Below are positions 3,018-61,735 of a DNA stretch of 64,000 bases, one piece after another (position 1 is the stretch's first letter; each line of letters begins with the position of its first letter). The notes beneath the pieces were generated by a model. That model was not told the DNA's origin and searched no databases. It was given only the letters and a program-made list of their open reading frames with translations. Made by a program: the position numbers and the translations under genes. Where the stretch lies: assembly GCA_028699085.1 (NCBI GenBank), contig JAQVVF010000001.1, positions 103,883-167,882 of the forward strand, in the 5' to 3' direction. This DNA is from Patescibacteria group bacterium. GTDB taxonomy: Bacteria; Patescibacteriota; JABMPQ01; JAQVVF01.

Positions 3018-3335
3018 ATGTTTAATAACGATAATGGTGCTCCAAGACAAATGGTACAAGGTAACTGGACATGTTCAGATTGCGGAAAAGAAATCACTGA
3101 ATTACCTTTTCAACCATCAGGAGACAGACCAGTACATTGCAAAGAATGTTGGGCAAAAAAGAGATCTGAAGGAAGATCAAACTTCCAAAACAGAGCTCCA
3201 AGACAAATGGTACAAGGAAATTGGGCTTGTTCAGAATGTGGAAAAGAAATCACAGAATTACCTTTTGAACCAAAAGGTGATCGCCCAGTATTATGCAAAG
3301 ATTGCTGGAGAGCAAAAAGACCAGCAAGATTCTAA
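3018..3335 (+). CDS. tandem-duplicated zinc-ribbon protein (two CxxC...CxxC modules)
   Basis: Internal duplication APRQMVQGNW(T/A)CS(D/E)CGKEITELPF(Q/E)P.GDRPV.CK(E/D)CW x2, giving 8 Cys in two ribbon units. The overlapping 2971..3345 frame has no Cys pattern and is judged spurious. Confidence 0.65.
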   Translation: MFNNDNGAPRQMVQGNWTCSDCGKEITELPFQPSGDRPVHCKECWAKKRSEGRSNFQNRAPRQMVQGNWACSECGKEITELPFEPKGDRPVLCKDCWRAKRPARF

Positions 3336-3361
3336 TCGATCTTAAAAAGTCTTTAATAGAT

Positions 3362-3392
3362 AAAGCCGCTGTAAAAGGCGGTTTTATTGTTT
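3362..3392 (+). terminator. rho-independent terminator after zinc-ribbon gene
   Basis: Hairpin aagccgc-tgtaaaag-gcggttt followed by a T run. Confidence 0.6.
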
Positions 3393-3532
3393 TTAAATTT
3401 CAAAAAATTTTATAGTTTAATAATAATTATTATCCACAAGTAAAAACTTCTTTACATCAAAATATCTGTTGCTATAATGCAATTGAACAAATTTCTTCAA
3501 ACAGTTTTGATTTTCGCAAAAATCCAAATCTC

Positions 3533-3561
3533 TTGACAGAAGACAAGGTATTTGCTATACT
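3533..3561 (+). promoter_or_regulatory. sigma70-like promoter (TTGACA-17-TATACT)
   Basis: TTGACA at 3533-3538 and TATACT at 3556-3561 with 17-nt spacer; about 135-nt leader before the ATP-grasp gene. Confidence 0.45.
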
Positions 3562-3695
3562 CATTTATTACTATTTTAATCAAGCAATACCGCTAAATCA
3601 AATGATGCAAAACGATGATGTCCCTCTTCCTGAGGAAAATTATCAAGTAAGCAGAATTTCAATAAATTTAATAGCTACTAACAGAAGTCACTAGT

Positions 3696-4754
3696 TTGAC
3701 TTTTTTATTTTGTAAAAATATGAAAAAGTGTATCGCGTTTTTATATAATGTCAGACATAAATATCCAGATCAAAAAGATTTAAGCACTCATACTGAAATT
3801 GATTTTGATGATCCAATTACAATCAAGACCATGATCAAGCATTTTAAAAATGCTGGTTTTAATGTCTTACCTATTGAGGCTGATGAAAAAGCATATCTCA
3901 AATTATTAAAGAATAAGGAAAAAATTGATTTAGTATTTAATTATTCAGAAGGAAAAAACGGCCAAGATCGCGAGACACATTTGCCTTCAATGTTAGAAAT
4001 GCTTGAAATTCCCTACACTGGTTCAACTCCTTTGACTCAAGCCTTAGCACTAAACAAAGCGAAAGCAAAAGAAATTTTAGTTGCTAATAATGTCCCAACT
4101 CCGATTCATCAATTATTCAAAACAGGTAACGAAAAATTAGATAAAAAATTAAAATTTCCAGTCATTGTAAAACCAATTGGCCAAGGCTCATCTGGTGGCA
4201 TTACTAACAAAAGTGTTGTCTTTAATCAATCTCAGCTAAAAAAACAGATTAATCAAGTTGTTAAAACATATCATCAAGAAGCAATCGTCGAGCCATTTTT
4301 AACTGGTCGCGAATTTTCAGTTGCATTATTAGGCAATCCTCCAAGAATATTGCCAATTATTGAAGCAGATCATAGTAAATTACCAAAAAATTATTTGCCA
4401 ATTGATTCGCTAGAAGTCAAATGGTTTTTTGAAGAACAAGAAGACAAATCCGGCGCTTCCGAACATTTGATCTGTCCAGCCAGAATTCCAAAATCATTAG
4501 AAAACAAAATCCAAGCATTATGTCTAAAGACATGGAATGCTTTAAATATTCGAGACTGGTGTCGTATTGATATTAGGTGCGACTCAAAAAATAATCCTTA
4601 TGTATTAGAAGTAAATTCACCAGCTGGAATGATTCCTCCGGAAATATCAACAACATCCTATTTTTCGCTAGCTGCGAGAGCTGCAGGAATCGATTATGAA
4701 AAATTATTAACACAAATTATTAATACATCCTTACAAAGATATGCAAAAAAGTAA
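3696..4754 (+). CDS. D-alanine--D-alanine ligase family ATP-grasp enzyme (start may be the ATG at 3720, MKKCIAF)
   Basis: Ddl-like motifs: LVFNYSEGKNGQDRETHLPSMLEMLEIPYTGS, FPVIVKPIGQGSSGGIT, EAIVEPFLTGREFSVALLGN, C-terminal EVNSPAGM. Confidence 0.75.
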   Translation: MTFLFCKNMKKCIAFLYNVRHKYPDQKDLSTHTEIDFDDPITIKTMIKHFKNAGFNVLPIEADEKAYLKLLKNKEKIDLVFNYSEGKNGQDRETHLPSMLEMLEIPYTGSTPLTQALALNKAKAKEILVANNVPTPIHQLFKTGNEKLDKKLKFPVIVKPIGQGSSGGITNKSVVFNQSQLKKQINQVVKTYHQEAIVEPFLTGREFSVALLGNPPRILPIIEADHSKLPKNYLPIDSLEVKWFFEEQEDKSGASEHLICPARIPKSLENKIQALCLKTWNALNIRDWCRIDIRCDSKNNPYVLEVNSPAGMIPPEISTTSYFSLAARAAGIDYEKLLTQIINTSLQRYAKK

Positions 4755-5859
4755 CGTAAAACAAAAAAGTAGAGAACAAAAAAATTTGTTCCATGCATCG
4801 CGTGGTCTTAAAGCCATGTTGCCTCATGGAGGTCTGCCTGAAATTATCTCTCCTTACATGGTTGATTTAATTTCCAAAAACGGCGGAGTTGATGGACCAT
4901 TAGGTAAGCAATTTGTTGCCCAGCCTGCAAAAGAAAAAAGATTAGCTAAAACAAACAACCTTGATCCATTATCCGAAGATGAGCATGAAGTTGCTCCTGG
5001 CTTAATTTACAAATATGAAGGTAAATTAAAAAAAGGTAAGGTCCAAACTTTTGGCCGTGTTTTGTGGACAGTCACTAGATTTTGTGCTACCTATTGTCGT
5101 TTTTGTACTCGTGGCCGAGAGATCGGTATACCTGCTGGATCTTGCGGTAAGACAAAAGGTACAATTGCCAATAATGCTTTTTTGACAGACCAACAAATTA
5201 ATGAAGTTTTTAAATTTATAAAAGAGCATAAAGAAATCAACGAAATTATATTATCAGGTGGCGATCCTTTAGTTGCTCCAAAAGATTATTTAATCAAAAT
5301 AATTACTGGCCTTTCCAAATTACAAGAACAAGGCTATCTCGATGTAGTGAGAATTGGATCTCGCTTGCCAATTGTTAATCCAAGTGCTATTCAAGAATGG
5401 CATTATGAATTGCTAGGCAAAATCAAAAATTTAAATTTAATGGTTCACATCAACCATCCTTCAGAACTTACACAACAATCTGTAGATGTTTTGTATAATT
5501 TCAGAAAAAAAAGTTTAGCAACAGTTTTCAGCCAGACAGTGTTGCTAAAAGGCGTTAATGATAATGTTGAAACCTTATATCAATTATTTATCAAAATAGT
5601 AAAAGAGGGAATTAGACCATACTATATGTATCAAAATGATCCAGTCTATTGGGCAAATCATTTCACAGTTCCATTCAAAAGAGCAGTTGCAATTTGGGAG
5701 AAATTAAGACCAAGATTATCCGGTATTGCTGCAACAGCTAGGTTCGTAATTGATACTCCTCATGGTTATGGCAAAATTCCAGTTCCAGAAGGATCTGCAT
5801 GGAAAGTAAACTACAACTCATTCATCGATTTTAAAAAGAAAAAACATATAATCAAATAA
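4741..5859 (+). CDS. KamA-family radical SAM aminomutase (lysine 2,3-aminomutase-like)
   Basis: CATYCRFCTRG radical-SAM Cys triad in KamA-type spacing, GGDPLV motif; 14-nt overlap with upstream ATP-grasp gene suggests translational coupling. Confidence 0.75.
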   Translation: MQKSNVKQKSREQKNLFHASRGLKAMLPHGGLPEIISPYMVDLISKNGGVDGPLGKQFVAQPAKEKRLAKTNNLDPLSEDEHEVAPGLIYKYEGKLKKGKVQTFGRVLWTVTRFCATYCRFCTRGREIGIPAGSCGKTKGTIANNAFLTDQQINEVFKFIKEHKEINEIILSGGDPLVAPKDYLIKIITGLSKLQEQGYLDVVRIGSRLPIVNPSAIQEWHYELLGKIKNLNLMVHINHPSELTQQSVDVLYNFRKKSLATVFSQTVLLKGVNDNVETLYQLFIKIVKEGIRPYYMYQNDPVYWANHFTVPFKRAVAIWEKLRPRLSGIAATARFVIDTPHGYGKIPVPEGSAWKVNYNSFIDFKKKKHIIK

Positions 5860-5865
5860 AATTAA

Positions 5866-5893
5866 AACCGCGCTTCAAACGCGGTTTTTTATT
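5866..5893 (+). terminator. rho-independent terminator
   Basis: aaaaccgcgc-ttcaaa-gcgcggtttttt hairpin plus T run. Confidence 0.7.
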
Positions 5894-5961
5894 TTCTCAA
5901 AAAATATCTTATGTTATAATAAAAATAATAAAAATATAATATAAAATAAAAAATAAAATTT

Positions 5962-7196: not shown

Positions 7197-8582
7197 ATGA
7201 AAAAAATTATCATTGGAGCTGTAACGCTCATTAGTTTGTGTATCTGTTCTAATCAAGTATTTGCTTATGATTCTTCTTCTCCGGAAGTAAAAATTTATAA
7301 TGTCAAAAATTTAAGACAGAACAAAGCCTTTTTTGCTTATGACAGGAATTTCAAAGGCGGTGCAAGCGTTGCTTTTGCCAAACTTGATGATAGTAAAAAT
7401 CATTTTTTAATTACTGGCGCAGGCTATGGTGGCGGTCCTCAAGTTAAAATCTTTGACAAATTCGGCAAAGAAAAGTATTCATTCAATGCATTTTCATCTA
7501 ATTTCAAAGGTGGAGTCAATGTTGCAGCTGGCGATTTAAACAAAGACGGCTATGATGAGATAATATGTTCTCAGGCAAGTTCTGGTCAAGCTTGGATAAA
7601 AGTTTATGACAAGACAGGCAAAAAAGTTCTATCAAATTTTTTAGGCTTTCCATCTGGATTTAAGGGAGGAGCAAATATTGCATCTGGTGATATTAATGGC
7701 GACAAAAAAGATGAAATAATAGTTGGCGCAGGATATGGTGGCGGTCCTCAAGTTCGTGTATTCACAAGAAAAGGCAAAGCTTTATTTTCTTCTTATCCTT
7801 TTGCGTATGATTTTCGAGGCGGAGTGAATGTTGCAACTGGTGATGTTGATAATGATTCCAAAGATGAGATAATTGCCAGCCAGGCATCAGAAGGTCAAGC
7901 TTGGGTAAAAGTTTTTAAAGCAAATAAAGATGTTACTGTTTTAGGAAATTTTTTAGCTTATAGCTCAAATTTTAAGGGCGGTGCAACTGTTTCCGGAATC
8001 GATGTCAATAATGACAAAAAAGCAGAAGTAATTACAGGCGCAGGCTTTGGCGGCGGTCCTCAAGTTAAAATTTTTACAGCAACAGGCCATTCATTAGGTA
8101 AAGATTTTTTCGCTTTTGATCAAAATTTTAAGGGTGGAGTCAATGTAGCCAGTGGAAAATTATCAATAACTGGGAATAACAAAATTTCAGTTTCAGTTGC
8201 CAGCTACAAAGGCGAGAGAGGCAATGATTACCAAAAGTATATCGAAGTAGATATTAGCGAACAGTGGTTGAAATATTTTGAAAATGGCAGGAGATTGGGC
8301 TATTCATTAGCCTCAACTGGCAATTATGGCACTGACACTCCGCTTGGAACTTATTTTATATTTTCGAAAAGACTTTCAGTTCGTATGACTGGTCCAGGCT
8401 ATGATCTTCCAGGCGTTCCATACGTGTTAGCATTTTTAGGTCCTTATACAATTCATGGTACATATTGGCATGACAATTTTGGCCATCGTATGAGTCATGG
8501 TTGCGTCAATTTGCCAACACCGTTTGCAGCAGAGGTTTACAATTGGGCAGATATCGGCACTCCAGTAGTAATCCACGAATAA
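7197..8582 (+). CDS. secreted FG-GAP/VCBS-like repeat protein fused to C-terminal L,D-transpeptidase (YkuD) domain
   Basis: Signal peptide; repeats of FKGGxxVAxGDxxxDxxDEIIxGAGxGGGPQVKIF; C-terminal HGTYWHDNFGHRMSHGCVNLP matches the L,D-transpeptidase catalytic His/Cys motif. Confidence 0.75.
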   Translation: MKKIIIGAVTLISLCICSNQVFAYDSSSPEVKIYNVKNLRQNKAFFAYDRNFKGGASVAFAKLDDSKNHFLITGAGYGGGPQVKIFDKFGKEKYSFNAFSSNFKGGVNVAAGDLNKDGYDEIICSQASSGQAWIKVYDKTGKKVLSNFLGFPSGFKGGANIASGDINGDKKDEIIVGAGYGGGPQVRVFTRKGKALFSSYPFAYDFRGGVNVATGDVDNDSKDEIIASQASEGQAWVKVFKANKDVTVLGNFLAYSSNFKGGATVSGIDVNNDKKAEVITGAGFGGGPQVKIFTATGHSLGKDFFAFDQNFKGGVNVASGKLSITGNNKISVSVASYKGERGNDYQKYIEVDISEQWLKYFENGRRLGYSLASTGNYGTDTPLGTYFIFSKRLSVRMTGPGYDLPGVPYVLAFLGPYTIHGTYWHDNFGHRMSHGCVNLPTPFAAEVYNWADIGTPVVIHE

Positions 8583-36395: not shown

Positions 36396-36656
36396 TTTTT
36401 ATTTACATTGTTATTCAATATATTTATGCATAAATTTGATATTAACCATTTTTTTATTAAAAAACAAACTTTTTTGATAAGTAGGTCCATAAAGCTTGTT
36501 TTTTTATGCTCAAAATTGACAAAAACAACATAAATAGCTACAATAAGCCATTTTTATCTTGCCAAATTATTATTAATATGCTATATTAATTTGAACAGAA
36601 AACCCAAGGTTTCGGCTGTACTGACCGAACCTTTCATAGCAAAGAGGAGGAGAGAG

Positions 36657-39521
36657 ATGAAGCCAAGAAACATGGTTGTCTTTTTGTTTTGTTGTGTGAT
36701 TTTGAGTGGCTGTCTCAAGCCGAACGAAGATTTTTCGAAGAATCTGTGCGATGAAGATGTGCGTTGTTCTGATGGATTTACCTGTATCTGCAACATGGAA
36801 AATCATACCAAGATTTGCGTCAGTGAGTCTGATCTTCCTGAGAACGCTGTTTATGCCAGCAAGGAGACGATCTGCATGATCGAATCCGATGCCGGAGTTG
36901 ATGTCGGAACTGATGTTGAAGCTGATGGCAATGTGCCTGATGCTGAAACTGATGTCCAGACTGATGCTTCGTCTGATGCAGAACAAGATGGAGGCTCGGA
37001 TCTTTCGCCTGACAATGGAACCGATTTGGCTCCTGACTCTGGTGAAGATATCCCTTGTATTCCGTCTACTGAAATCTGCGACCTCAAGGACAACGACTGC
37101 GACGGCGACACTGATGAAGATTTCAACAATCTGAATCAGGCCTGCTCGTCTGGCTTGGGTGAGTGTGAAGCTTCTGGCGTCTACGTTTGTAGCGTCGATG
37201 GCAAGAACACTACTTGCAACGCAGTCGCAGGAATTGCTGTTGCTGAAGAATGTGATGAACTGGACAATGATTGTGACGGCGTTACTGACGAAGAGTTGGT
37301 TGGCTGTTGCGATGAAGACGATGTCCAGGAGTGTGGATCTGATGTTGGTGAATGCCAGAAGGGTCAAATGACTTGTCAGGAAGACGGCAGTTGGGGACAG
37401 TGCGAAAACGCTGTTGCTCCGATTGTTGATCTTTGCGATGACAAGGACAATGATTGCGATGGCAACACCGACGAGGATTTCATTAATCTGAATTCTGCTT
37501 GTCAGATTGGTCAGGGCGCTTGTCTTTCGCATGGCGTTTTTGCTTGTAGCGAAGACAGCCTCACGACCGAATGCAACGCTGAAATCATCCAGCCTTCCGA
37601 AGAGGTATGCGATCAGCAGGATAACAACTGCGATGGCAATACTGATGAAGATTTGGCTGGCTGTTGCATTCCCGATGATCAGGTTGTTTGTGGCTCCAAT
37701 GTTGGCGAATGCCGGCAGGGCCTCAAGACTTGTTCAGCGGAAGGCGTCTGGAGCGAATGTGTCGGCGAAGTCAAGGTTGCAGAAGAGCTTTGTGATAGCA
37801 AGGACAACAACTGCGACGGCTTCATCGATGAAAAGTTCGTTAATCTTCATGCACAGTGCCAGATCGGAATTGGCGAATGCGTATCGACAGGCACAATGAT
37901 TTGCGCAATTGATCAGCAATCGCTGTCTTGCAACGCAGAAGTCAAAGTCGGAAGCGACGAGACCTGTGACAACAAGGACAATGACTGTGATGGTAATACC
38001 GATGAAGAGCTGACGCGTGAATGCGGCTCTGATGTCGGCGAATGCCAGAAGGGCGTGCAGTCTTGTTCCGCTGGTGGCTGGCTTGTCTGCGAAGGCGAGA
38101 TTCAGTCGAGCGACGAGATCTGTGACGGCCAAGATAACAACTGCGACAACAATACTGACGAAGGTTTCAACATTGGCGATCAGTGCTTCAACGGACTTGG
38201 CGAATGCCGGACCGAAGGCGTGATTGCTTGTGTTGATGAAAATCAGAGTGCTTGCAATGCAGTTGCCGGCTCAGCAAGCGAAGAGCTTTGCGATGGCCTG
38301 GATAACGATTGCGACGATTTGATCGATGAAGAGCTGGAAGACTGTTGTGAGCCTGGCACAATTTCTGAGTGCGGTATTGATACTGGGGAATGTGTGAAGG
38401 GAACTTCCACGTGCCTGGCAGACCGCTCTTGGGACTGGTGTTTTGGAGCAACTGGACCTTCCATGGAAGAATGCGATGGCAAGGATAATGACTGCGATGG
38501 CGAAAACGACAATGATCTGATTGGCTGTTGCTCTCCGGGTGTTTCTCGCAATTGCGGTATCGATGAAGGCGAATGCCGAATCGGAACGCAGACTTGCTGG
38601 GAAAATCGGGAATGGGGCGCATGCCAGAATCAGATCTCGCCGACTGATGAGATCTGTGATGGTTTGGACAACAACTGCGATGGTTTCACTGATGAGGACT
38701 TTGACCTCACCTTTGATACCAACAACTGCGGTAGTTGTAACCACATTTGCGGAAATCAGGGGACAGCGAGTTCAATCTGCGAAGCTGGTGAATGCATTCT
38801 GCAATGCAGTCGCTTCCGCTTCGATGTGAATGCTGATCCTGCTGATGGATGTGAATGTGAAGTCACCAACTGCGGAGTGGAAATCTGCGATCAGGTTGAC
38901 AATGACTGCGATGGCGCTGTCGACGAAGACTGCCAGTCGCTGGTCATGTACCTGTCATTTGACAACCATTTCAATGATGGTTCAACGAATGCTAACAATG
39001 CTGTCAACCACGGCGCCACTTTCACTGCGGATGCAGTTTGTGGCCAGGCAGCATCGTTCGACGGAGTCGACGATTATGCTGAAGTGGATAGCGTGAGTAT
39101 GAATAGTATTGGTAATGAGTTTACGTTCTTCGCAACAGTCAAGGTGCGAAGTTTCGAGCTCAATGACAGAATTTTCAATAAATATCTAAACAAGCCAAGT
39201 ATTGGAATTGATTTTTCCGATAATGTTGGAAACTGCTGGAATTTTATGTTGTCTTCAAACAACATTGGTTGTAACAAGGCAGTAGCTGTCCAGACATGGA
39301 TTACCATTGCCGGAAAATATAGTAATGGTAGATTCATTTCTTATGTAAATGGTGAAAAAGATGTAGACGTAAATACTGCCAACATGCTAGGTACAAAAAT
39401 GTACATCGGTGCATCTAGCAATTCTGGAACAAAGAGTGATATGATTATTGATCAACTTGTTTTTTACAACAAGGCATTTTCGGAAGAAGAAATCGTACAT
39501 TATTTTAAAATCCTAAAGTAG
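36657..39521 (+). CDS. 955-aa cysteine-rich repeat lipoprotein: 11 x CD.xDN[DN]CDGxTDE (MopE/putative-metal-binding-like) repeats plus C-terminal LamG (Laminin_G_3/concanavalin-like) domain
   Basis: AAGAGGAGG RBS then ATG 36657; lipobox ILSGC; alternating repeat modules; C-terminal ...AASFDGVDDYAEVDSV...LVFYNKAFSEEEIVHYF typical of LamG_3. Moderately GC-rich (~50%). Confidence 0.75.
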   Translation: MKPRNMVVFLFCCVILSGCLKPNEDFSKNLCDEDVRCSDGFTCICNMENHTKICVSESDLPENAVYASKETICMIESDAGVDVGTDVEADGNVPDAETDVQTDASSDAEQDGGSDLSPDNGTDLAPDSGEDIPCIPSTEICDLKDNDCDGDTDEDFNNLNQACSSGLGECEASGVYVCSVDGKNTTCNAVAGIAVAEECDELDNDCDGVTDEELVGCCDEDDVQECGSDVGECQKGQMTCQEDGSWGQCENAVAPIVDLCDDKDNDCDGNTDEDFINLNSACQIGQGACLSHGVFACSEDSLTTECNAEIIQPSEEVCDQQDNNCDGNTDEDLAGCCIPDDQVVCGSNVGECRQGLKTCSAEGVWSECVGEVKVAEELCDSKDNNCDGFIDEKFVNLHAQCQIGIGECVSTGTMICAIDQQSLSCNAEVKVGSDETCDNKDNDCDGNTDEELTRECGSDVGECQKGVQSCSAGGWLVCEGEIQSSDEICDGQDNNCDNNTDEGFNIGDQCFNGLGECRTEGVIACVDENQSACNAVAGSASEELCDGLDNDCDDLIDEELEDCCEPGTISECGIDTGECVKGTSTCLADRSWDWCFGATGPSMEECDGKDNDCDGENDNDLIGCCSPGVSRNCGIDEGECRIGTQTCWENREWGACQNQISPTDEICDGLDNNCDGFTDEDFDLTFDTNNCGSCNHICGNQGTASSICEAGECILQCSRFRFDVNADPADGCECEVTNCGVEICDQVDNDCDGAVDEDCQSLVMYLSFDNHFNDGSTNANNAVNHGATFTADAVCGQAASFDGVDDYAEVDSVSMNSIGNEFTFFATVKVRSFELNDRIFNKYLNKPSIGIDFSDNVGNCWNFMLSSNNIGCNKAVAVQTWITIAGKYSNGRFISYVNGEKDVDVNTANMLGTKMYIGASSNSGTKSDMIIDQLVFYNKAFSEEEIVHYFKILK

Positions 39522-45950: not shown

Positions 45951-46916
45951 TTGAATATTATGAAGATTCTTGTTACTGGAGGAGCTGGCTTTATCGGATC
46001 TCACACAATCAGAAAGTTATTAGATAAAAAATACAATATAATCTGCGTTGATAATTTAAATAATTTTTATAATCCAAAAATAAAAATTAATAATTTAAAG
46101 CCCTTTTTAGATAATAAAAAGTTTAAATTTTATAAAGTTAATATTTGTAATAATAAAAAGTTAGCAAATGTTTTTGCAAATGAAAAAATAGACAAAATAA
46201 TACATCTGGCAGCTAGAGCCGGAGTTCGTCCGAGTTTAGAAAAACCAGAAATTTACGCTAAAACTAATATATTAGGCACACTGAATTTATTAGAGTTAAG
46301 TGTAAAACATAAAATAAAAAATTTTGTCTTTGCATCTAGCTCAAGTATTTATGGCAATAATAATAAAGTTCCATTTTCTGAAAATGATATTGTTGACGAT
46401 CAACTGTCTCCTTATGCTGCCACAAAAAAAGCTTCTGAATTGCTAGCAAAGACTTATCACAATCTTTACGGGCTAAAATGCACAGGCTTAAGATTTTTCA
46501 CAGTTTACGGACCTTCCAGCCGTCCAGACATGGCTCCATATCTTTTCGTTGATTCTATCTATCATGGCAGAGAAATAAAAAAATTTGGTGATGGTACGTC
46601 AAAAAGAGATTACACTTTTATTGATGATATTACAGATGGAATCATTTCAGCTTTAGATAAAAATTTAGATTTTGAAATAATCAATTTAGGCAATAACAAA
46701 CCAATCAAATTAAATTATTTTATTTCTGTAATTGAAAAACTATTAGACAAAAAAGCTAATATCAAAAAATTTCCGTCCCAAATGGGAGACATGAAGATAA
46801 CTTATGCTGATATTAGCAAGGCAAAAAAAATATTAAATTTTCAACCAAAAGTTTCGATAGAACAAGGAATGCAGAAAATGGTGGAATGGTATTTAGAAAA
46901 TAGAATAACAGCATGA
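45951..46916 (+). CDS. NAD-dependent epimerase/dehydratase (UDP-sugar epimerase family)
   Basis: KILVTGGAGFIGSH, SSSSIYG, YAATKKASE (YxxxK). Confidence 0.8.
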   Translation: MNIMKILVTGGAGFIGSHTIRKLLDKKYNIICVDNLNNFYNPKIKINNLKPFLDNKKFKFYKVNICNNKKLANVFANEKIDKIIHLAARAGVRPSLEKPEIYAKTNILGTLNLLELSVKHKIKNFVFASSSSIYGNNNKVPFSENDIVDDQLSPYAATKKASELLAKTYHNLYGLKCTGLRFFTVYGPSSRPDMAPYLFVDSIYHGREIKKFGDGTSKRDYTFIDDITDGIISALDKNLDFEIINLGNNKPIKLNYFISVIEKLLDKKANIKKFPSQMGDMKITYADISKAKKILNFQPKVSIEQGMQKMVEWYLENRITA

Positions 46917-48034
46917 AAATATTAATGATTGCGCCAACTCCTTTTTTTTCAGATAGAGGCTGTCACATTAGAATATATGAAGAAATAAGAACGTTGCAGG
47001 AATTAGGTCATAATATTACGCTTTGCACTTATCATTTAGGAAATAATATTGCAGGTATTAACATTAAAAGAATTATTAATATTCCTTGGTACAATAAAAT
47101 TGATGCTGGACCATCTTGGCACAAAATTTATTTAGATTTATTGCTTTTTCTCAAGGCGTTTAAGGTAAGTTATCAAGATAATTTTGATATCATACATGCA
47201 CATTTACACGAAGGCGTATTTATCGGTAAGGCAATTAAAATACTGCATTTTAACAAGATTCCATTAATTTTTGATAGCCAGGGGGGGTTGCTTTCTGAAT
47301 TAAAATCACACAATTTTGTTAAAGAAAAAGGAATAATAAAAAAGATGATATGCTTTTTAGAAAAAAAGTCCTACAAAATTGCTGATAAAGTAATTGCAAG
47401 CTCGAATTATTTAAAGAATGACAAGGTCCAGGTAATTACTGATAGTACGAATCAAGAATTCAAAGTAACAAGAAATGAATTAGAAAATCTTAAGCAAAGC
47501 CTAGGCTTGAGTAATAAAAAAATAGTTGTTTATTCTGGTGGTATCAAGAAATGTAAGGGAATAGATTCAATTTTCGAAGCAGCAATAAAAGTCATCCCAA
47601 AAATTGCTAATATTGTTTTTTTGATAATTGGCTATGGCGATTTAAAAAAGTACAAAGAATTAGCAAACAATTTAAAGATTAGCAGCCATTTCTTATTTAC
47701 TGACAGAATTAATTATTTCGATCTTCCTAAATATTTAAAAATTGCTGATCTTGCTATAGATCCAAAGCATGACAGTACTGAGGCTAGTGGAAAAATAATC
47801 AATTACATGAGAGCTGGACTGCCAATCATTGCTTATGATAATAATTTTAATAAAAAAGTTTTAGGGAAAAAGGGAATATATATCAATAATTCCAGTGAGT
47901 TGTCATCAAGAATACTTGATTTTTTTTCAGACAATAGCCCGAATCAGATTCATACGTCAACAAAAAATTCTTATACAGAGATCAGCAGTATTTATTACAA
48001 TATCAAAAATGATAAAAATCACTCAAAATCATAA
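46913..48034 (+). CDS. GT4-family glycosyltransferase
   Basis: N-terminal GT4 fold; C-terminal ASGKIINYMRAGLPIIAYD motif. Confidence 0.7.
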   Translation: MKILMIAPTPFFSDRGCHIRIYEEIRTLQELGHNITLCTYHLGNNIAGINIKRIINIPWYNKIDAGPSWHKIYLDLLLFLKAFKVSYQDNFDIIHAHLHEGVFIGKAIKILHFNKIPLIFDSQGGLLSELKSHNFVKEKGIIKKMICFLEKKSYKIADKVIASSNYLKNDKVQVITDSTNQEFKVTRNELENLKQSLGLSNKKIVVYSGGIKKCKGIDSIFEAAIKVIPKIANIVFLIIGYGDLKKYKELANNLKISSHFLFTDRINYFDLPKYLKIADLAIDPKHDSTEASGKIINYMRAGLPIIAYDNNFNKKVLGKKGIYINNSSELSSRILDFFSDNSPNQIHTSTKNSYTEISSIYYNIKNDKNHSKS

Positions 48035-48776
48035 AGACCTACTTTTGGAGTTAATAAAAACAGACTTCAAACTCCGTTATAGCGGATCAGTCTTAGGTTT
48101 TGTATGGGTTTTATTAAAACCATTTTTTTTATTTTTAATATTTTATATCGTTTTTTCATATATTTTTGCTCAAGGCGAATCTCATTATTCTTTACAACTA
48201 ATATTGGGCTTGATCTTATTTTCTTATTTTTCTGAAGGCACGACTCATGGTCTAACTTCACTTTTAAGCAAGGCTAACATTATTTTGAAAGTAAATTTTC
48301 CTCGCCAGATAGTCGTAGTAGCCTCAATCATAAACTCTTTTATCACATTAGTCGTGAGTTTTATAATTTTTTTCGTTTTCTGGATTTTTAATCCAACTCC
48401 GATAACCTGGCTTTGGTTATTATTTCCAATTTATTTGGTTATCTTGACGTTATTAATAGTAGGCTTTTCATTCTTTACAAGCATTTTGTTCGTCAGATTG
48501 CGAGATTTACAAAGTATTTGGGAGTTATCATTACAAGTTATTCTTTATGCAAGTGCAATATTCTATCCCATTTCTATTTTACCACCACAATTAAGAAACA
48601 TTTTTTTTCTGAATCCGATAGCAGTTATAATCCAGCAAAGCCGTCAAATTTTAATATATAATCAGATTCCTGATCTTAAAATACTATTAGTCATATTTTT
48701 TGCAAGTGTAATCATATTTATTTTTGGATATTTATTTTTTAAGAAGAATATTAAAAGATTAGCTGAGTATTTTTAA
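48009..48776 (+). CDS. ABC-2 type polysaccharide/O-antigen export permease (Wzm-like)
   Basis: MIKITQNHKDLLLELIKTDFKLRYSGSVLGFVWVLLKP start typical of Wzm/TagG; 6 TM. The track ORF 47895 start is an in-frame upstream extension. Confidence 0.7.
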   Translation: MIKITQNHKDLLLELIKTDFKLRYSGSVLGFVWVLLKPFFLFLIFYIVFSYIFAQGESHYSLQLILGLILFSYFSEGTTHGLTSLLSKANIILKVNFPRQIVVVASIINSFITLVVSFIIFFVFWIFNPTPITWLWLLFPIYLVILTLLIVGFSFFTSILFVRLRDLQSIWELSLQVILYASAIFYPISILPPQLRNIFFLNPIAVIIQQSRQILIYNQIPDLKILLVIFFASVIIFIFGYLFFKKNIKRLAEYF

Positions 48777-48785
48777 TATAATTAC

Positions 48786-49514
48786 ATGCCAAACATTGCG
48801 ATAAAAATAGAAAATATATCAAAAAGCTTTAGAATCCCACAAGAAAATAGGAATACATTGCGAGAACATTTTTGGAATTTATTTCATCCAACAAAGTATA
48901 AAAAATTTGAAGTTCTTAAATCCATATCTTTTAGAATAGAAAAAGGTCAATGGCTGGGAATCATAGGCAACAATGGTTCTGGAAAATCAACACTACTTAA
49001 AATAATTGCTGGAATTTACGAACCTGACGAAGGAAAAATCAAAATAAATGGACGACTTGTGCCTTTTTTGGAATTAGGAGTTGGATTTAATCCAGAACTT
49101 TCAGCAAGAGAAAATATATTCTTAAATGGAACAATATTAGGAGTTACAAGAAAAGAATTAGAAAAAAAATTTGATCAAATAGTAGACTTTGCTGAAATAA
49201 GACAATTTTTAGATCTACCCTTGAAAAATTTTTCATCAGGAATGCAGGTTCGTCTAGCATTTGCTATAGCCATACAAGCCGAGGCTGATATTTATTTATT
49301 AGACGAAGTTTTGGCAGTTGGAGACATGATCTTTCAAAAAAAATGTAAAAAAGTTTTTTATGAATTAAAACATCAGAAAAAAACAGTTATTTTCGTTAGT
49401 CACAACATTAATGAAATTAAGAATTTTTGCGACAAAATAGCATGGCTTGAAAGAGGAAAAATAAAAGAGTATGGTAGTGTTTTAGATATAGCTGCTAAAT
49501 ATTTAAATAAATAA
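48786..49514 (+). CDS. ABC transporter ATP-binding protein (Wzt/TagH-like)
   Basis: Walker A GIIGNNGSGKSTLLK, signature SSGMQVRLAFA, Walker B IYLLDE. Confidence 0.85.
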   Translation: MPNIAIKIENISKSFRIPQENRNTLREHFWNLFHPTKYKKFEVLKSISFRIEKGQWLGIIGNNGSGKSTLLKIIAGIYEPDEGKIKINGRLVPFLELGVGFNPELSARENIFLNGTILGVTRKELEKKFDQIVDFAEIRQFLDLPLKNFSSGMQVRLAFAIAIQAEADIYLLDEVLAVGDMIFQKKCKKVFYELKHQKKTVIFVSHNINEIKNFCDKIAWLERGKIKEYGSVLDIAAKYLNK

Positions 49515-49528
49515 TAAGTATAATTATT

Positions 49529-50371
49529 ATGTTTAGTTGGAAATATTATGATCCATCATTTGAATACGAAAAAAAATTTCAAGATGTTTTTTGGCCATGG
49601 GCTGGACATAAGCGTTTTGCTTATGATCTAATTCGTAATTCTAAGCCTCAAAAAATTGTTGAATTAGGAACGCATAAAGGAACGTCATTTTTTTCTTTTT
49701 GCCAAGCGATAAAAGATTTAGGAACAAATACAGAGTTAAATGCCGTAGATACATGGACAGGTGATCAGCACTCTGGATTTTATGATGACTCAGTATATTA
49801 TGCTGTTAAAGATATTCAAAAATCATATTTTTCAAAAATAAATATTAAGTTGCATCGAAAAAAATTCGATGACACATTAACGAGTTTTAAGGATGATTCG
49901 ATTGATTTATTGCACATCGATGGGTTGCATACATATAGTGCCGTAAAACACGATTTTGATTCCTGGTACAAAAAAGTTAACAAGAAAGGTATTATTCTCT
50001 TTCATGATACTAATGTCAAAACTGGCGACTTTGGTGTATATAGATTATGGCAGGAATTAAAAGATAACGTAAAAATAGAATTTTATCATTCTAACGGCCT
50101 AGGTATACTATTTAAAGACCAAGAACAAGCTGAGAATATGAGGAGTTTTCAAAAACACTGGCAGCAATATTATGCATCGCTCTACGAAAATAATATATTA
50201 AAGAATAGACTAATAGAAAAAAATAAAGAAAACAATAAAATCAGTTTTCAATTGAATCAAAAAAATAAGGAATTAGAACGCATCCATAACTCGCTATTAT
50301 GGAAAATAATTTGGGCAACAAAAAACCCCAAAAGATTAATTCAAAAAAAAATATTTTCTTCAAGGAATTAA
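49529..50371 (+). CDS. class I SAM-dependent methyltransferase (Methyltransf_24/sugar O-methyltransferase-like)
   Basis: IVELGTHKGTSFFSF ... LLHIDGLHTYSAVKHDF. Confidence 0.55.
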   Translation: MFSWKYYDPSFEYEKKFQDVFWPWAGHKRFAYDLIRNSKPQKIVELGTHKGTSFFSFCQAIKDLGTNTELNAVDTWTGDQHSGFYDDSVYYAVKDIQKSYFSKINIKLHRKKFDDTLTSFKDDSIDLLHIDGLHTYSAVKHDFDSWYKKVNKKGIILFHDTNVKTGDFGVYRLWQELKDNVKIEFYHSNGLGILFKDQEQAENMRSFQKHWQQYYASLYENNILKNRLIEKNKENNKISFQLNQKNKELERIHNSLLWKIIWATKNPKRLIQKKIFSSRN

Positions 50372-50397
50372 AAAAAAGTATTTAGATGTGATATTTT

Positions 50398-51693
50398 ATG
50401 AGGATAACAAACTTTACAAAAAAGACATTAGCCAGCTTAATACCAAAGAAGTATAAGCCTTTGGCAATGAAATATAAATATGAAATTGATTTTTGGCTTT
50501 CAAAAGACAAGAATAAAAATAAGGCATCTGTTAAATATCTACTGAATAAAAGGTTTTTTTGCTTACAATCACTAAATGCTATCAAAATAAGTAATAATAA
50601 TTTTCGACTGAATATAGTGACAGATAGCATAAAGAAAAGAAGTCTATTCGGAGGAGTGGCAACAGCATTAATTCTTGCAACATTATTTTCAAATAAATAT
50701 AAAATCCCGCTAAGAATTATCACAAGGACAACAGAAAATAATCCAAGAGACTACAAAAATTTACTTAATTTTTTTAAAATTGAACAACCACAAAAAACTG
50801 AGTTTTTTTCAGATTACGATCGCAATTTATGCGATAATAATTATAGGATTGAAATATCAGAAAAAGATATCTTTTTAGCAACATCATGGTGGACTGCTGA
50901 AGTTATCAGAAAAGTTAATTTAAGAAAAAATTTTTTCTACATACTTCAAGAAGTTGAAGGCTATTTTTATCCAAATGGTGATGAACAATATATGTGTAAT
51001 AGCGTTTTGAATAAACAGAACATTAACTACATAATTAATTCTAAAATTCTATCAGATTATTATTCGAAAAATGGATACGAAAATGTCTCATCTAAAAGTA
51101 TTAATTTTGAACCAGCATTTCCAAAGCACGTTTATTCTCCTGGACAAGATTCATTTACGAAAAAAACAAAATATAAGTTGTTCTTTTACTCGAGGCCAGC
51201 AAATCCAAGGAATCTTTTTTGGACTGGTTTAAAAATATTAGACGAAGCTATATTATCGGGAACTATAGATACTAAAGAATGGGATATCTATTTTGTTGGA
51301 TCAAAAGTTCCGCCTGTAATATTTTCAAACGGAGTTATTCCTAAAAGATTAGGGCAATTAAATTGGAACGAATATTCAAAATTCCTGAAAACAGTTGATC
51401 TCGGTTTCTGTCTGATGCAAACACCGCATCCAAGCTATCCGCCGTTAGATATTGTTTCATCTGGTGGCGTTGTTTTAACAAATAAATACCTAAATAAGCA
51501 GTCATTAAATTATTCAGATAACATAATATGTGAGAATCTAGATGAAAAATCGATGCTTGAAGGCTTTAAGCAAGCAATAAAATTAGCCAAGGACTCAAAG
51601 AAAAGGCAACAAAATTATTTAAATAGTAGCTTAGAAACAAGCTGGGAAATAAGTTTTGAGAAAGTTCTAGAATTTATGTATGAAAGAAAATAA
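50398..51693 (+). CDS. hypothetical protein, putative polysaccharide glycosyltransferase
   Basis: Polysaccharide-locus context only. Confidence 0.35.
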   Translation: MRITNFTKKTLASLIPKKYKPLAMKYKYEIDFWLSKDKNKNKASVKYLLNKRFFCLQSLNAIKISNNNFRLNIVTDSIKKRSLFGGVATALILATLFSNKYKIPLRIITRTTENNPRDYKNLLNFFKIEQPQKTEFFSDYDRNLCDNNYRIEISEKDIFLATSWWTAEVIRKVNLRKNFFYILQEVEGYFYPNGDEQYMCNSVLNKQNINYIINSKILSDYYSKNGYENVSSKSINFEPAFPKHVYSPGQDSFTKKTKYKLFFYSRPANPRNLFWTGLKILDEAILSGTIDTKEWDIYFVGSKVPPVIFSNGVIPKRLGQLNWNEYSKFLKTVDLGFCLMQTPHPSYPPLDIVSSGGVVLTNKYLNKQSLNYSDNIICENLDEKSMLEGFKQAIKLAKDSKKRQQNYLNSSLETSWEISFEKVLEFMYERK

Positions 51694-51701
51694 TTCTTAA
51701 T

Positions 51702-52886
51702 ATGCTTTTTATAAATAAAAAAAAGAAGATCGAACAGAATAATAACATTGAGCCTTGGAATATAGATTTTTTGACACGGCTAAGAATTATTACGACTAAA
51801 TCTTCTCGAAAAAAAGTTATTTATATTTTTGAAGCAGCAAATACCAGCACATTCAGGTATAGGATCTACAATATGTGGCAAGCTTTAAATTACAGCAAAT
51901 CCTGGATTGGATCATTTTTTTTTGAAAATGAGCTCTCAACTGTAAGTAATTTTATAGATCAATCCTGCGTAATAATATTCGGACGTACAAGATGGTCATT
52001 AATAATGGCTAATTTTTTAAAAAAGGCAAAAGCTAAGAAAATTTATACAGTTTTTGATTCAGATGATTTAGTTTTTAATATTGATATGATTCCTCAGTTG
52101 ATGAACACTCTCAACGTTAGTTTTGAAAACTATGATAATTACGATTATTGGTTTGCCTATATATCAAGACTCTGGCAATTCGGAAAAATGTGTGATGCAA
52201 CAATCGGTACAAATGAATTTTTGTGCAACAAGTTAAGGGAAACATTTGATAAACCAAGCTTTGTTATTAATAATTTTTTAAATAATGAACAAATTGAAGT
52301 TTCCAACAAGCTATATAATGACAAAAAAACAAAATGTAGCAATGAAGAAATAAAACTTGGATATTTCAGCGGAACGCCATCTCATACTAACGATTTCAGA
52401 AAAATTGAAGTTGAAATAATCGATTTACTACGTAATTATCCTAGAATAACTCTAGAGATAGTTGGCTTTATGGAATTTTCAAATCTGTCATTGGATTTGA
52501 TAAAGAAAAAAAGAATATTCTATACACAACTTGTTGATTTTCTGGCGCTTCAAAAAAAGATGGCCGAAGTAGATATTAATATTGTTCCATTAATTGAAAA
52601 TGATTTTACAAATTGCAAATCAGAATTAAAATTTTTTGAAGCCAGTATTGTTGGAACGATTACATGCGCTACACCGATATATTCCTATAGAAATAGCATT
52701 CAGAATAATAAAACTGGTTTTTTGTGTAAAGAAGGCGAATGGTATTCAACTATTGAGCAAATATACAAAAAAAGAATAGACAATAAAATAATATCACGCG
52801 CCAGATCATATTGCCTAAACAGATATTCACCAAAGAATCAAGTTTATAATATTGAAAGGGTACTTGATGCTATAGCTTCGGAATAA
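51702..52886 (+). CDS. hypothetical protein, putative glycosyltransferase (paralogue of 52905..54128)
   Basis: Shares GYFSGTPSHTNDF / CKSELKFFEA motifs with the downstream gene. Confidence 0.35.
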   Translation: MLFINKKKKIEQNNNIEPWNIDFLTRLRIITTKSSRKKVIYIFEAANTSTFRYRIYNMWQALNYSKSWIGSFFFENELSTVSNFIDQSCVIIFGRTRWSLIMANFLKKAKAKKIYTVFDSDDLVFNIDMIPQLMNTLNVSFENYDNYDYWFAYISRLWQFGKMCDATIGTNEFLCNKLRETFDKPSFVINNFLNNEQIEVSNKLYNDKKTKCSNEEIKLGYFSGTPSHTNDFRKIEVEIIDLLRNYPRITLEIVGFMEFSNLSLDLIKKKRIFYTQLVDFLALQKKMAEVDINIVPLIENDFTNCKSELKFFEASIVGTITCATPIYSYRNSIQNNKTGFLCKEGEWYSTIEQIYKKRIDNKIISRARSYCLNRYSPKNQVYNIERVLDAIASE

Positions 52887-52904
52887 TATATATAATCTAT
52901 CAAA

Positions 52905-54128
52905 GTGTTAATTAGTAATATAAAAGTATTAACTAGAAGTTTTAGACAAATGACTTTGTCTAGCTTCGCAGACAAAATTAAAAGCTATTCTAAACAGCAA
53001 ATTTTTGGTTATTTAGAAAATATTAAATATTACTATTATTATTTTAATAAAATAAAAAATATTGAGAAAAATAAGAAGTTAAATCAAGAAAAAAAAGTAC
53101 TTATGCTGACCGGCACATTTTATTCAACGCAAATATATCGTTGTTTGCATCAGCGAGAACAACTAGAAATTAAGAACATCGTTTGTGACTATAAATATAT
53201 TTCTTTGATTACATTAAAAGATATACTAAGTTACGATGTTTTTATTTTTCACAGAGTTAGATGTAATAAATTTGTAAATTTTATGATCGACCGAATTCAC
53301 AGTTGCAATAAGAAAATAATTTTTGATATTGATGATTTAATTTTTGATCCAAGCTCTATATCGAATATACCAACAGTAATTACCAAAAAAGATAAATTAA
53401 AAAGATCACAGCAATATTTAGATACACTAAAAAAAAGTGATTTCGCATTAACAACTACGAACTATTTAGCAGACATTCTCAGAAAGTATAAGCCAAGCTT
53501 TATAAATAGGAATGCTCTAAGTAATCAGCAGATAAGCAGCATAATAAGCAAAAAAGTCCTCAAAAATAGCGCAAAGATAAATATTGGCTATATAAGTGGC
53601 AGTAATTCTCATGATCAAGATTTTAAAATTATTGAAAAGCCTTTAATATCAATGCTAAAAAAGTATCCTAACGTAAATCTATATATTTTCGGTTTTTTAC
53701 GCCTAGGCAAAGCCTTCGATATCTTTAAATCTCAAATTATTAGAATCCCTTTTGTTCCTTGGGAAAAAATGCTTGATGAAGTTGCAAAGTTTGATATTAA
53801 TGTTGCACCTCTTCGAGTTTCTGATTGCTTCTGTGAATCAAAAAGTGAAATCAAATTTATAGAGGCTGGCTTGCTGAGCATTCCAACTATTGCATCGCCA
53901 ACTGAAGCATTCAAATATGCAATATTAAACAATGTGAACGGATATTTAGCAGAAGATGAAAAACAATGGACGGATTGTATGGAAATGTTAATAACGGATA
54001 GAGTACTTAGAAAAAAAATTGGCAAAAATGCCAATAAAGCCGTTATGAAAAATTATTGTCCGCAATATAGATCTGAAAATCTATTTAATATCATCAATGA
54101 AGTTTTGGAAAAAAATCAGAAGGCATAA
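52905..54128 (+). CDS. hypothetical protein, putative glycosyltransferase (paralogue of 51702..52886)
   Basis: GYISGSNSHDQDF / CESKSEIKFIEA. Confidence 0.35.
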   Translation: MLISNIKVLTRSFRQMTLSSFADKIKSYSKQQIFGYLENIKYYYYYFNKIKNIEKNKKLNQEKKVLMLTGTFYSTQIYRCLHQREQLEIKNIVCDYKYISLITLKDILSYDVFIFHRVRCNKFVNFMIDRIHSCNKKIIFDIDDLIFDPSSISNIPTVITKKDKLKRSQQYLDTLKKSDFALTTTNYLADILRKYKPSFINRNALSNQQISSIISKKVLKNSAKINIGYISGSNSHDQDFKIIEKPLISMLKKYPNVNLYIFGFLRLGKAFDIFKSQIIRIPFVPWEKMLDEVAKFDINVAPLRVSDCFCESKSEIKFIEAGLLSIPTIASPTEAFKYAILNNVNGYLAEDEKQWTDCMEMLITDRVLRKKIGKNANKAVMKNYCPQYRSENLFNIINEVLEKNQKA

Positions 54129-55861: not shown

Positions 55862-55913
55862 GATATGAAATAATCAGAAAAGCTATATCATAAAGGTAAT
55901 GACTATTTTAATC

Positions 55914-61730: not shown

Positions 61731-61735
61731 AAAAA

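Follow-up and report, generated by a model that had tools for sequence, protein, structure and literature searches.

The closest described systems join an aminomutase to an enzyme that acts on the rearranged amino acid. In the EpmB/EpmA (YjeK/PoxA) system, a KamA-family enzyme makes β-lysine and an ATP-dependent ligase puts the β-lysine on an amine. AblA and AblB make Nε-acetyl-β-lysine, a compatible solute of methanogens, and in the case of blasticidin S the KamA-family aminomutase BlsG is followed by BlsI, which acylates or ligates the β-amino acid into a small molecule. PylB and PylC combine a radical SAM lysine mutase with a Ddl-related ATP-grasp enzyme, by which the amino acid so rearranged is joined to an amine. 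A different logic, to ligate first and epimerise afterwards, operates in the MurD2/MurL pathway, where MurL adenylates and epimerises the newly ligated C-terminal residue (PMC5808125, PMC8788868).

We analysed a 64 kb stretch of DNA (the window) from an AT-rich CPR (Patescibacteria) bacterium, in which a ligase gene, here called AG1, precedes the gene of a KamA-family aminomutase (Table 1). In pairing such an aminomutase with an enzyme that acylates or ligates a β-amino acid the locus is like AblA/AblB and BlsG/BlsI, and in pairing a mutase with an ATP-grasp ligase it is like PylB/PylC, a likeness that beyond the fold is drawn from established knowledge. However, AG1 belongs to another, CPR/DPANN-specific ligase family than AblB and BlsI, and EpmA is a class II aaRS paralogue, whereas AG1 has the ATP-grasp/Ddl fold.

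Table 1. Features of the ligase–aminomutase operon (positions in the 64 kb window)
Feature	Position	Strand	Description
Sigma-70-type promoter-like site	3533..3561	+	TTGACA, 17 nt, TG-n-TATACT; 11/12 match, extended -10
30-codon sORF MMQNDDVPLPEENYQVSRISINLIATNRSH	3602..3694	+	Operon leader, between promoter and ligase gene
AG1 ligase ORF	TTG 3696 or ATG 3720 to 4754	+	ORF reading
AG1	3720..4754	+	344 aa; by sequence, carboxylate-amine ligase with a Ddl-type ATP-grasp fold, from a separate CPR/DPANN family
AG1-stop/aminomutase-start overlap	4741..4754	+	14 nt, translational coupling
KamA-family aminomutase ORF	4741..5859	+	372 aa
Terminator-like hairpin AAAACCGCG-loop-CGCGGTTTT, then T-run	5864..5888	+	5 nt past aminomutase stop codon

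The earlier note on this DNA had described a translationally coupled ligase and aminomutase in a two-gene operon, with a promoter at 3533 and a terminator near 5866. Both signals were found, and the coupling was borne out by the ORF coordinates and by the junction sequence, ...AGA T[ATG CAA AAA AG TAA] CGT, in which the aminomutase ATG lies at 4741 and the ligase TAA at 4752-4754. The operon, from promoter to terminator, is real, but the conserved sORF had been missed, and the gene order is sORF, AG1, aminomutase. The ligase gene start also needed revision: since the N-termini of the homologues begin 1–7 residues ahead of a conserved IAFLYN motif, ATG 3720 is likely the start, and the TTG proposed before probably sets it 24 nt too early. 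The promoter is identical base for base, in both hexamers, in the related genome L001, whereas the intergenic DNA flanking it is merely 66–72% identical. Promoter-like sites overall were no commoner than expected from shuffled sequence (30 found versus 25), and a further one lies at 3451-3478. The hairpin scores as a terminator on the minus strand too.

Compared with L001, the sORF has a nucleotide identity of 89%, as against 85% for both enzyme genes and the lower figure given above for intergenic DNA, and four of its changes are synonymous. It may be an upstream ORF, a small protein or an RNA element. We rejected it as a general feature of AG1 loci, as it is lineage-specific: elsewhere the DNA upstream of AG1 lacks it. 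That its 30-residue product is a precursor peptide modified in a RiPP-like manner by the two enzymes seems extremely improbable to us; in favour of this idea are the shared promoter, the conservation of the sORF above its surroundings and the existence of peptide-modifying ATP-grasp and radical SAM enzymes, which is established knowledge. We likewise rejected the idea that the 5′ region holds a riboswitch or a leader RNA, on chance-level matches only in an Rfam search at permissive E-values and on an unremarkable fold z-score of -2.1.

Both family assignments of the earlier note hold at the superfamily level, as judged from Pfam and NCBIfam matches. For the aminomutase, we observed matches to Pfam Radical_SAM (2e-10) and to the KamA-type models of NCBIfam (1e-45 to 1e-57), all of the latter under their cut-offs: AblA 194 bits (cut-off 525), AblA_like_2 187, EpmB (TIGR03821) 171 (cut-off 369) and TIGR00238 169 (168.9 against 199.2). 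AblA is thus the best-scoring curated model, yet its score is far under the cut-off, and no GNAT acetyltransferase adjoins the aminomutase in the window. The profile match to PDB 2A5H was 2.7e-47, and a structure model (pLDDT 81) had 2A5H as its best Foldseek match (E 1e-23, TM 0.71), the next matches being at 1e-7. Over 25 family members, the cysteines of the CxxxCxxC motif (C115/C119/C122) are invariant and align to C125/C129/C132 of lysine 2,3-aminomutase (LAM). The same holds for K345 of the GYGK motif, aligned to the PLP lysine K337 in GGGGK of 2A5H, and for R124, D300 and D338, aligned to LAM R134, D293 and D330, which bind lysine according to established knowledge of 2A5H. The aminomutase carries two insertions of roughly 12–15 residues relative to LAM; its LAM_C domain scores 16.5 against a cut-off of 26.7, and outside the cluster motif there is no invariant cysteine, so that the zinc-site cysteines are lacking. 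On this alignment evidence the protein is a divergent CPR clade of the KamA family. It is probably a lysine 2,3-aminomutase that makes β-lysine, because it keeps the cysteines of the LAM cluster motif, the lysine for PLP and the two aspartates that bind lysine. Its likeness to EpmB lies in its short architecture, without the LAM C-terminal domain; however, it is only 29–33% identical to E. coli EpmB, falls well under the EpmB cut-off and retains the second aspartate of LAM where E. coli EpmB has a glutamate.

AG1 matches Pfam Dala_Dala_lig_C at 7e-33, above the gathering score, which places it in the Ddl-type ATP-grasp fold. At the same time it scores 20.3 against a cut-off of 34.6 for Dala_Dala_lig_N and falls below every curated NCBIfam Ddl cut-off (NF002378, 183 versus 243 bits; TIGR01205, 150 versus 246). 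Relative to E. coli DdlB, the ATP/Mg and second-site residues K97, K144, S150, E180, E187, R255, D257, E270, N272 and S281 are kept. In Ddl, the Glu15 loop binds the first D-Ala. The GGxSxE loop with this Glu15 is replaced in AG1 by an invariant YN(V/I)RHxYPD insertion. Of the omega-loop pair Lys215-Tyr216, the lysine is kept (K234) and the tyrosine is changed to tryptophan (W235), invariant in 29/29 aligned family members; AG1 further has an invariant DFDD cluster and a 5-residue insert (the IPPE insert) before Ser281. As its residues read, AG1 is probably not a D-Ala-D-Ala ligase, because the first-substrate pocket has been rebuilt at the Glu15 loop, the DFDD cluster, the tryptophan and the IPPE insert. 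As marks of a PylC-type ligase we looked for a close resemblance to PylC in structure or sequence and for pylB/pylD neighbours, and found neither for AG1.

The earlier note had named a peptidoglycan variant among its candidates, above all if the ATP-grasp enzyme were the only Ddl of the organism. In this reading AG1 would be the organism's D-Ala-D-Ala ligase or a variant of it that makes an altered stem-peptide block, possibly with β-lysine. No known family is closer to AG1 in sequence and fold than Ddl, some databases label AG1 family members D-alanine--D-alanine ligase, 1.3 kb downstream there is an L,D-transpeptidase, a MurL-like partner stands beside AG1 in other genomes, and the window holds no other Ddl-like gene. 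Against these points, AG1 departs from the canonical Ddl/VanA family in its scores and in the substituted residues described above, and its family extends to archaea: five Aenigmarchaeota proteins are 62–63% identical to it, and the archaeal locus sits among glycogen genes. Unlike Ddl, AG1 has ATP-grasp paralogues and not mur genes as its neighbours (about 80 loci); adjoining mur genes were never seen in about 150 loci. The rest of the window likewise has no mur or dcw genes, only surface-polysaccharide genes. The evidence does not support this proposal, and we consider it very unlikely.

Conservation of the gene pair in other genomes, which the earlier note had named as a check, was found, so that the pair is not confined to this genome. 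In 7/59 species-representative loci (L011, L012, L014, L017, L022, L035 and L044), which are scattered over several clades in both protein trees, AG1 directly precedes a gene of the aminomutase family with an overlap of 14–29 nt. No other family stands immediately upstream of the aminomutase as often as AG1 (cluster 0), with 10 loci versus 5 for the next family. Independent, analogous pairs exist with two other KamA subtypes. In L079, an AblA_like_2-type KamA gene is divergent from AG2-AG1, and in L076, an Actinomycetota MAG, an AblA-like KamA accompanies an AG1-like ligase of 39% identity that keeps the K-W pair and the insert. The recurrence of the pairing and its extension to these subtypes favour a ligase that uses a β-amino acid, as had been suggested before; adjacency is nevertheless the minority state. 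Seen from the AG1 side it occurs in 3/52 loci, and other ATP-grasps are the neighbours of AG1 in 48/56, so that most AG1 genes are not tied to an aminomutase. In the archaeal AG1 loci no aminomutase was found within 8 kb. Co-occurrence derived from matches between the hit lists gave few matches, too sparse for statistics. We found no literature on the AG1–aminomutase pair or family in CPR.

In most other genomes, the partners of AG1 form a cassette of two further ATP-grasp ligases, AG2 and c3, the MurL-like c7, which is a putative C-terminal epimerase, and a ClpB-like ATPase; in L035 this is a complete, tightly overlapping c3-c7-AG1-KamA-ClpB arrangement. All six c7 members (6/6) match the MurL model only, far under its cut-off, with a best E of 2e-9. 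That c7 precedes AG1 there recalls the MurD2/MurL pathway; however, c7 is absent from the window, the ATP-grasp enzymes are not Mur-type ligases and a UDP-MurNAc context is lacking. AG2, c3, a second KamA-like gene and the short radical SAM gene that accompanies epmA in CPR were also looked for in the window and not found. The cassette repeatedly adjoins ClpB-like, DnaK and GrpE genes. An embedding of the aminomutase in hrcA-grpE-...-dnaK was seen in L009 only, and we rejected the idea that the aminomutase is linked to heat-shock operons; it is the AG1 cassette to which the ClpB linkage belongs. PADLOC gave no match for AG1, the aminomutase, c3, c7 or AG2, and a reading as anti-phage defence was rejected on this ground.

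In four CPR loci (L041, L069, L071 and L163), members of the aminomutase family are also found next to a bona fide epmA or a homologue, or at most 5.5 kb from it, and therefore the aminomutase may be the CPR EpmB. With the EpmA model TIGR00462 (cut-off 287 bits), L069 scored 288, L041 243 and L071 219; in L163 the EpmA homologue, P0293, was found by profile search. The L071 aminomutase is 65% identical to that of the window. The earlier note had set out an outcome contrary to its proposal, namely no conserved pair, a canonical Ddl and a KamA homologue grouping with EpmB next to efp. About half of this was found, in the form of the epmA linkage in the four loci; efp was beside the aminomutase in none of about 75 loci.

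This linkage raises the question of whether the functions of the two enzymes are unrelated, with the aminomutase feeding EpmA and EF-P as the CPR EpmB, AG1 acting in a separate multi-ATP-grasp pathway, and their co-transcription in some lineages reflecting shared regulation or genome compaction. The four loci would give the aminomutase a sufficient role without AG1, it lacks the LAM C-terminal domain as EpmB does, EpmA is widespread in CPR, and AG1 mostly occurs without the aminomutase. Moreover, the AG1 cassette (L007) and epmA (L161) are found together on one contig of 1.2 Mb, Ga0453684_0000008. However, the overlapping arrangement recurs in several clades, and AG1-type ligases beside two other KamA subtypes are unlikely to arise by chance at ~700–1000 genes per genome. 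In addition, the gene to which epmA is coupled in CPR is not this aminomutase but that of another radical SAM enzyme, of ~290 aa, and the window contains neither epmA nor efp. We consider such a separation of functions somewhat unlikely, although it is the rival to be taken most seriously.

A further alternative is that AG1 modifies proteins, putting β-lysine on a lysine of EF-P, where it would replace or supplement EpmA, or on a different protein, for instance a ribosomal protein or the client of a chaperone. RimK, LysX and tubulin-tyrosine ligase attach other amino acids to proteins. The chemistry would be that of PylC and EpmA, a carboxylate joined to a lysine ε-amine, as is established knowledge, and the link of the aminomutase family to the EF-P system, the position of the cassette by ClpB-like, DnaK and GrpE genes and the translation GTPase BipA upstream in the window are in line with it. 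That AG1 simply replaces EpmA was rejected as a general explanation, since the two are present on the same 1.2 Mb contig. On balance, a protein-modifying AG1 appears unlikely.

The reading that we prefer, tentatively and at a rough probability of 0.45, is that AG1 ligates β-lysine into a small peptide-like product. The conserved residues suggest that the aminomutase would shift the α-amino group of L-lysine to C3 with the aid of a [4Fe-4S] cluster, SAM and PLP, giving β-lysine. From the fold, residues and gene linkage of AG1, we infer that it would use ATP to turn a carboxylate into an acyl-phosphate and then join this to an amine; it retains the ATP/Mg residues of Ddl together with Arg255/Ser281, the clamp by which the incoming amino acid is held at its carboxylate. 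The coupling to the aminomutase suggests β-lysine as one of its two substrates, in which case the product would be a β-lysine dipeptide or a small peptide-like molecule. As AG1 elsewhere adjoins AG2, c3, the MurL-like c7 and a ClpB-like ATPase, the window may represent the minimal form of a larger ligase cassette. A wider and rather doubtful extension is that AG1, AG2, c3, the MurL-like protein and the KamA-type aminomutase make up a ribosome-independent assembly line in CPR and DPANN for a conserved small peptide with β-lysine and possibly a D-residue, of which the window would hold the two-enzyme core. Since the cassette is repeatedly found by ClpB, DnaK or GrpE genes, a stress-protective solute or, in such ultra-small symbionts, an envelope component is conceivable as the product, both being guesses.

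CPR bacteria and DPANN archaea are a large share of microbial diversity; most of them have not been cultured, and their biosynthetic genes are very few. The AG1 family, annotated as D-Ala-D-Ala ligase or left nameless, probably has an important role in them, given its identity of 60–68% across both groups. As both enzymes are small and soluble-looking, the question is directly testable in vitro. If AG1 ligates β-lysine, a Ddl-fold enzyme would have been put to a new use, and a new β-lysine metabolite would exist; if the aminomutase serves EF-P only, the annotation of a CPR-wide EpmB clade would be fixed, and β-lysylation of EF-P would exist in CPR. Either way, the 'Ddl' labels on AG1 family members seem to be mistaken, and models of the CPR cell wall that build on them could be led astray.

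We observed that the ligase gene AG1 and the gene of the KamA-family aminomutase share 14 nt, as the AG1 stop codon lies at 4752-4754 and the aminomutase starts at ATG 4741 (junction ...AGA TATGCAAAAAAGTAA CGT). The true AG1 start is likely ATG 3720 and not TTG 3696, because the aligned homologues begin 1-7 residues ahead of the IAFLYN motif. Promoter-like matches as a class were not enriched in the window, which is AT-rich (32.6% GC): 30 were found and 25 expected. The site ahead of AG1 is base-for-base identical in the related genome GCA_964574655.1 (loci L001/L011), although identity over the flanking intergenic DNA is no more than 66-72%. Both genomes have the neighbourhood in full: FKBP, BipA, zinc-ribbon protein, ligase, aminomutase, DUF308, TMEM175 and YkuD. 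The translationally coupled operon claimed in the earlier note is real and conserved.

Features of the window and of loci from other genomes and metagenomes (L-numbers)
Feature	Sequence	Position	Strand	Remark
Zinc-ribbon protein, 105 aa	window	3018-3335	+	two CxxC-x17-CxxC repeats (TIGR04272); own terminator 3359-3388; a 124-aa ORF in another frame over this DNA is probably spurious
Promoter-like site	window	3533-3561	+	sequence match; TTGACA-17 nt-TG-extended TATACT
Leader sORF, 30 codons	window	3602-3694	+	MMQNDDVPLPEENYQVSRISINLIATNRSH; between promoter and AG1
AG1 ORF	window	3696 (TTG)/3720 (ATG)-4754	+	ORF call
Aminomutase ORF	window	4741-5859	+	ORF call
Terminator-like hairpin	window	5864-5888	+	G+C-rich, then T-run; 5 nt past aminomutase stop codon
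YkuD L,D-transpeptidase	window	7197-8582	+	domain fused to long FG-GAP repeat run; signal-peptide-like N-terminus
976-aa protein	window	36591-39521	+	MopE-like metal-binding repeats and LamG domain
Surface-polysaccharide block, large	window	45951-63975		near the 976-aa protein; RmlD, dehydratases or epimerases, several glycosyltransferases, WsaF, ABC transporter ATPase, methyltransferases
127-nt insertion, sORF-ligase gap	L001	6854-6979		internal inverted repeats; missing from window (3695-3719)
~0.8 kb past aminomutase	L001	9117-10059		two extra small genes; missing from window (5860-5961)
AG1 cassette	L035; L007; L119; L022	4107-11647; 1666-9681; 5556-9011; 5442-9065		
Ligase, 165-aa ORF, KamA gene	L076	6161-9101		Actinomycetota MAG
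Synthetase-like gene near AG2-AG1	L134	5861-9022		~478 aa
Aenigmarchaeota AG1 orthologue and ThiF-c7-AG2 group	L004	8001-9029 and 12021-16527		also L140
epmA-radical SAM pairs	L161; L162; L163; L071; L041	5138-6999; 5265-6927; 5120-6990; 13662-15446; 9207-11104		

The sORF of the operon leader had been overlooked in the earlier note. Its DNA is 89% identical to that of the relative L001, against 85% for both enzyme genes; four of its changes are synonymous and its 3' half is nearly invariant. It is absent from other lineages, and an Rfam search of the leader matched no family. Candidate roles are those of an upstream ORF, a small protein and an RNA element; that its peptide is the substrate on which a RiPP is built appears extremely improbable.

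AG1 matches Pfam Dala_Dala_lig_C at 7e-33, with the N-terminal Ddl domain under threshold, and lies under the cut-off of every curated NCBIfam Ddl/Van model (best 183 versus 243 bits). A database search gave >120 proteins at 59-68% identity from Roizmanbacteria, other Patescibacteria, 'Omnitrophica'-labelled MAGs and five Aenigmarchaeota MAGs; by their sequences, these relatives form a tight, distinct family. The ATP/Mg and second-site residues of E. coli DdlB are conserved in AG1 (K97, K144, S150, E180, E187, K215, R255, D257, E270, N272 and S281). In place of the DdlB GGxSxE loop with Glu15, the family has an invariant YN(V/I)RHxYPD insertion and, after it, a DFDD cluster that is likewise invariant; the Tyr216 position is an invariant Trp, and five residues, IPPE(I/V), are inserted ahead of the Ser281 equivalent. 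From these residues, we infer that AG1 would keep ATP-grasp chemistry and an amino acid with a free carboxylate as its amine substrate, with a new acyl-donor pocket. The proposed Ddl-family assignment stands for the fold and the Pfam C-terminal match only; AG1 fails the defining Ddl tests (cut-offs, Glu15 loop, Tyr216) and is not a canonical D-Ala-D-Ala ligase. This failure, together with the occurrence of members in archaea and the lack of mur genes nearby, disfavours the suggested modification of a cell-wall precursor, and we consider such a role very unlikely.

The aminomutase matches Pfam Radical_SAM. Compared with the KamA-type NCBIfam models (AblA, AblA_like_2, EpmB, TIGR00238, and the Arg and Glu 2,3-aminomutases), it scored 150-194 bits with all and reached the cut-off of none; its >120 homologues at 58-68% identity are almost all from CPR. 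Lysine 2,3-aminomutase (LAM) was the sole PDB match of the family profile (2A5H, 2.7e-47), and the structure model (pLDDT 81) matched 2A5H at 1e-23, the next matches being at 1e-7. The invariant C115, C119 and C122 align to the LAM cluster cysteines, and R124, D300, D338 and K345 to LAM R134, D293, D330 and the PLP lysine K337. Unlike LAM, the family lacks the C-terminal domain and zinc cysteines, as does EpmB, and it has two insertions of ~12-15 residues each. Judged from these alignments, it is a KamA-type enzyme with a complete lysine-type active site, most likely converting lysine to beta-lysine.

Next, we surveyed the linkage of the two genes from both sides, using simple ORF calling and single-linkage clustering for neighbour counts. 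Among 68 aminomutase loci of species-representative genomes (own ORF calls and HMMs), 59 had enough upstream sequence, and in 7 an AG1 orthologue immediately precedes the aminomutase gene on its strand with a 14-29 nt overlap. Of all immediate upstream neighbours, the ATP-grasp family is the most frequent (10 loci versus 5 for the next family). From the AG1 side (80 metagenomic loci), the aminomutase was directly 3' in only 3/52, plus two truncated contigs. In neighbour-joining trees without support values, the adjacent pairs are spread over several clades in the tree of either protein, intermixed with non-adjacent cases; many MAG taxon labels are unreliable, e.g. 'uncultured Gammaproteobacteria' on TPA assemblies. 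Conservation of the pair, which the earlier note wished to see checked, thus holds as recurrence in several clades, but as the minority state. The link is strengthened by two independent analogues. L079 has a KamA gene of the AblA_like_2 type upstream of, and divergent from, AG1 and its Ddl-like paralogue AG2. In L076, an AG1-like ATP-grasp (39% identical, K-W pair and insert conserved) is followed in the row by an ORF of unknown family and then by an AblA-like KamA gene (489 bits, cut-off 525; both lysine-binding Asp conserved).

In 48/56 loci, AG1 is immediately preceded by the gene of another ATP-grasp, either AG2 (24 loci) or the ~470-aa PreATP-grasp/PGM1-like c3 (24 loci). Ahead of the ligases in several loci is c7 (~450-500 aa), a MurL-like protein with a PP-loop-like FTFGKDS motif and an SC...RWCxxCxKC motif; MurL adenylates and epimerises the C-terminal residue just added by a ligase (PMC5808125, PMC8788868). 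A ClpB-like AAA+ gene flanks the cassette in 31/80 loci, plus L007 and L035, with AG1 proteins at such loci down to 48% identical to each other. Gene orders include c3-c7-AG1-aminomutase-ClpB, tightly spaced (L035), and hrcA-grpE-AG1-aminomutase-AG2-dnaK (L009). This cassette of up to three ATP-grasp ligases and c7, often with a ClpB-like gene at its flank, occurs widely in CPR metagenomes; no function has been described for it. None of AG2, c3, c7 and the ClpB-like partner was found in the 64-kb window, which therefore represents a minimal form, seen in a minority of loci, of a cassette that is larger and variable. The Aenigmarchaeota orthologue (62% identical) is nested within the bacterial AG1 tree, which suggests transfer from CPR to DPANN; its gene directly follows that of a glycogen-debranching enzyme, and a ThiF-c7-AG2 group stands apart close by.

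A search with E. coli EpmA found short LysRS paralogues immediately next to the aminomutase gene, in convergent orientation, in L069 and L041, and 5.5 kb off in L071. Their best NCBIfam model is EpmA (288, 243 and 219 bits, respectively; cut-off 287); in L163, epmA is 5 kb away. By profile search, EpmA is common in CPR. Since epmA adjoins or lies near it, the aminomutase family may be the counterpart of EpmB in CPR. AG1 does not simply replace EpmA, as the 1.2 Mb contig Ga0453684_0000008 carries both the cassette (L007) and epmA (L161). In CPR, epmA has a translationally coupled partner of its own (overlap of 4-8 nt where gene calls exist), a different, non-KamA radical SAM enzyme of ~290 aa with a Cys-rich C-terminus, matched by viperin-like (pVip) models at 7e-16 and often followed by alr (alanine racemase); this pair may represent a variant of EF-P modification not yet described. 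In L134, the C-terminal ~300 residues of a protein encoded ~0.7 kb downstream of AG2-AG1 align to E. coli EpmA; it is most likely a full-length class II lysyl-tRNA synthetase, and its position may reflect either chance or a further connection with lysine.

Production of a beta- or rearranged amino acid, followed by its ATP-dependent ligation, is the logic of EpmB/EpmA, AblA/AblB and PylB/PylC, and also of BlsG/BlsI. In the present pair, the Ddl-fold ligase comes from an uncharacterised CPR/DPANN family and the aminomutase from a clade captured by no curated model. Each gene is also linked elsewhere, the aminomutase to epmA and AG1 to other ATP-grasp genes; that the two act independently, the aminomutase serving EF-P, seems somewhat unlikely, and loading of beta-lysine onto a protein by AG1 quite unlikely. 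The reading we prefer, at a probability of about 0.45, is that the aminomutase would make beta-lysine and AG1 would join it to another carboxylate or amine partner, yielding a small peptide-like product. Our literature search found no paper on AG1, the aminomutase clade or their pairing. Although linkage is the minority state, the pair is conserved, mis-annotated and testable.
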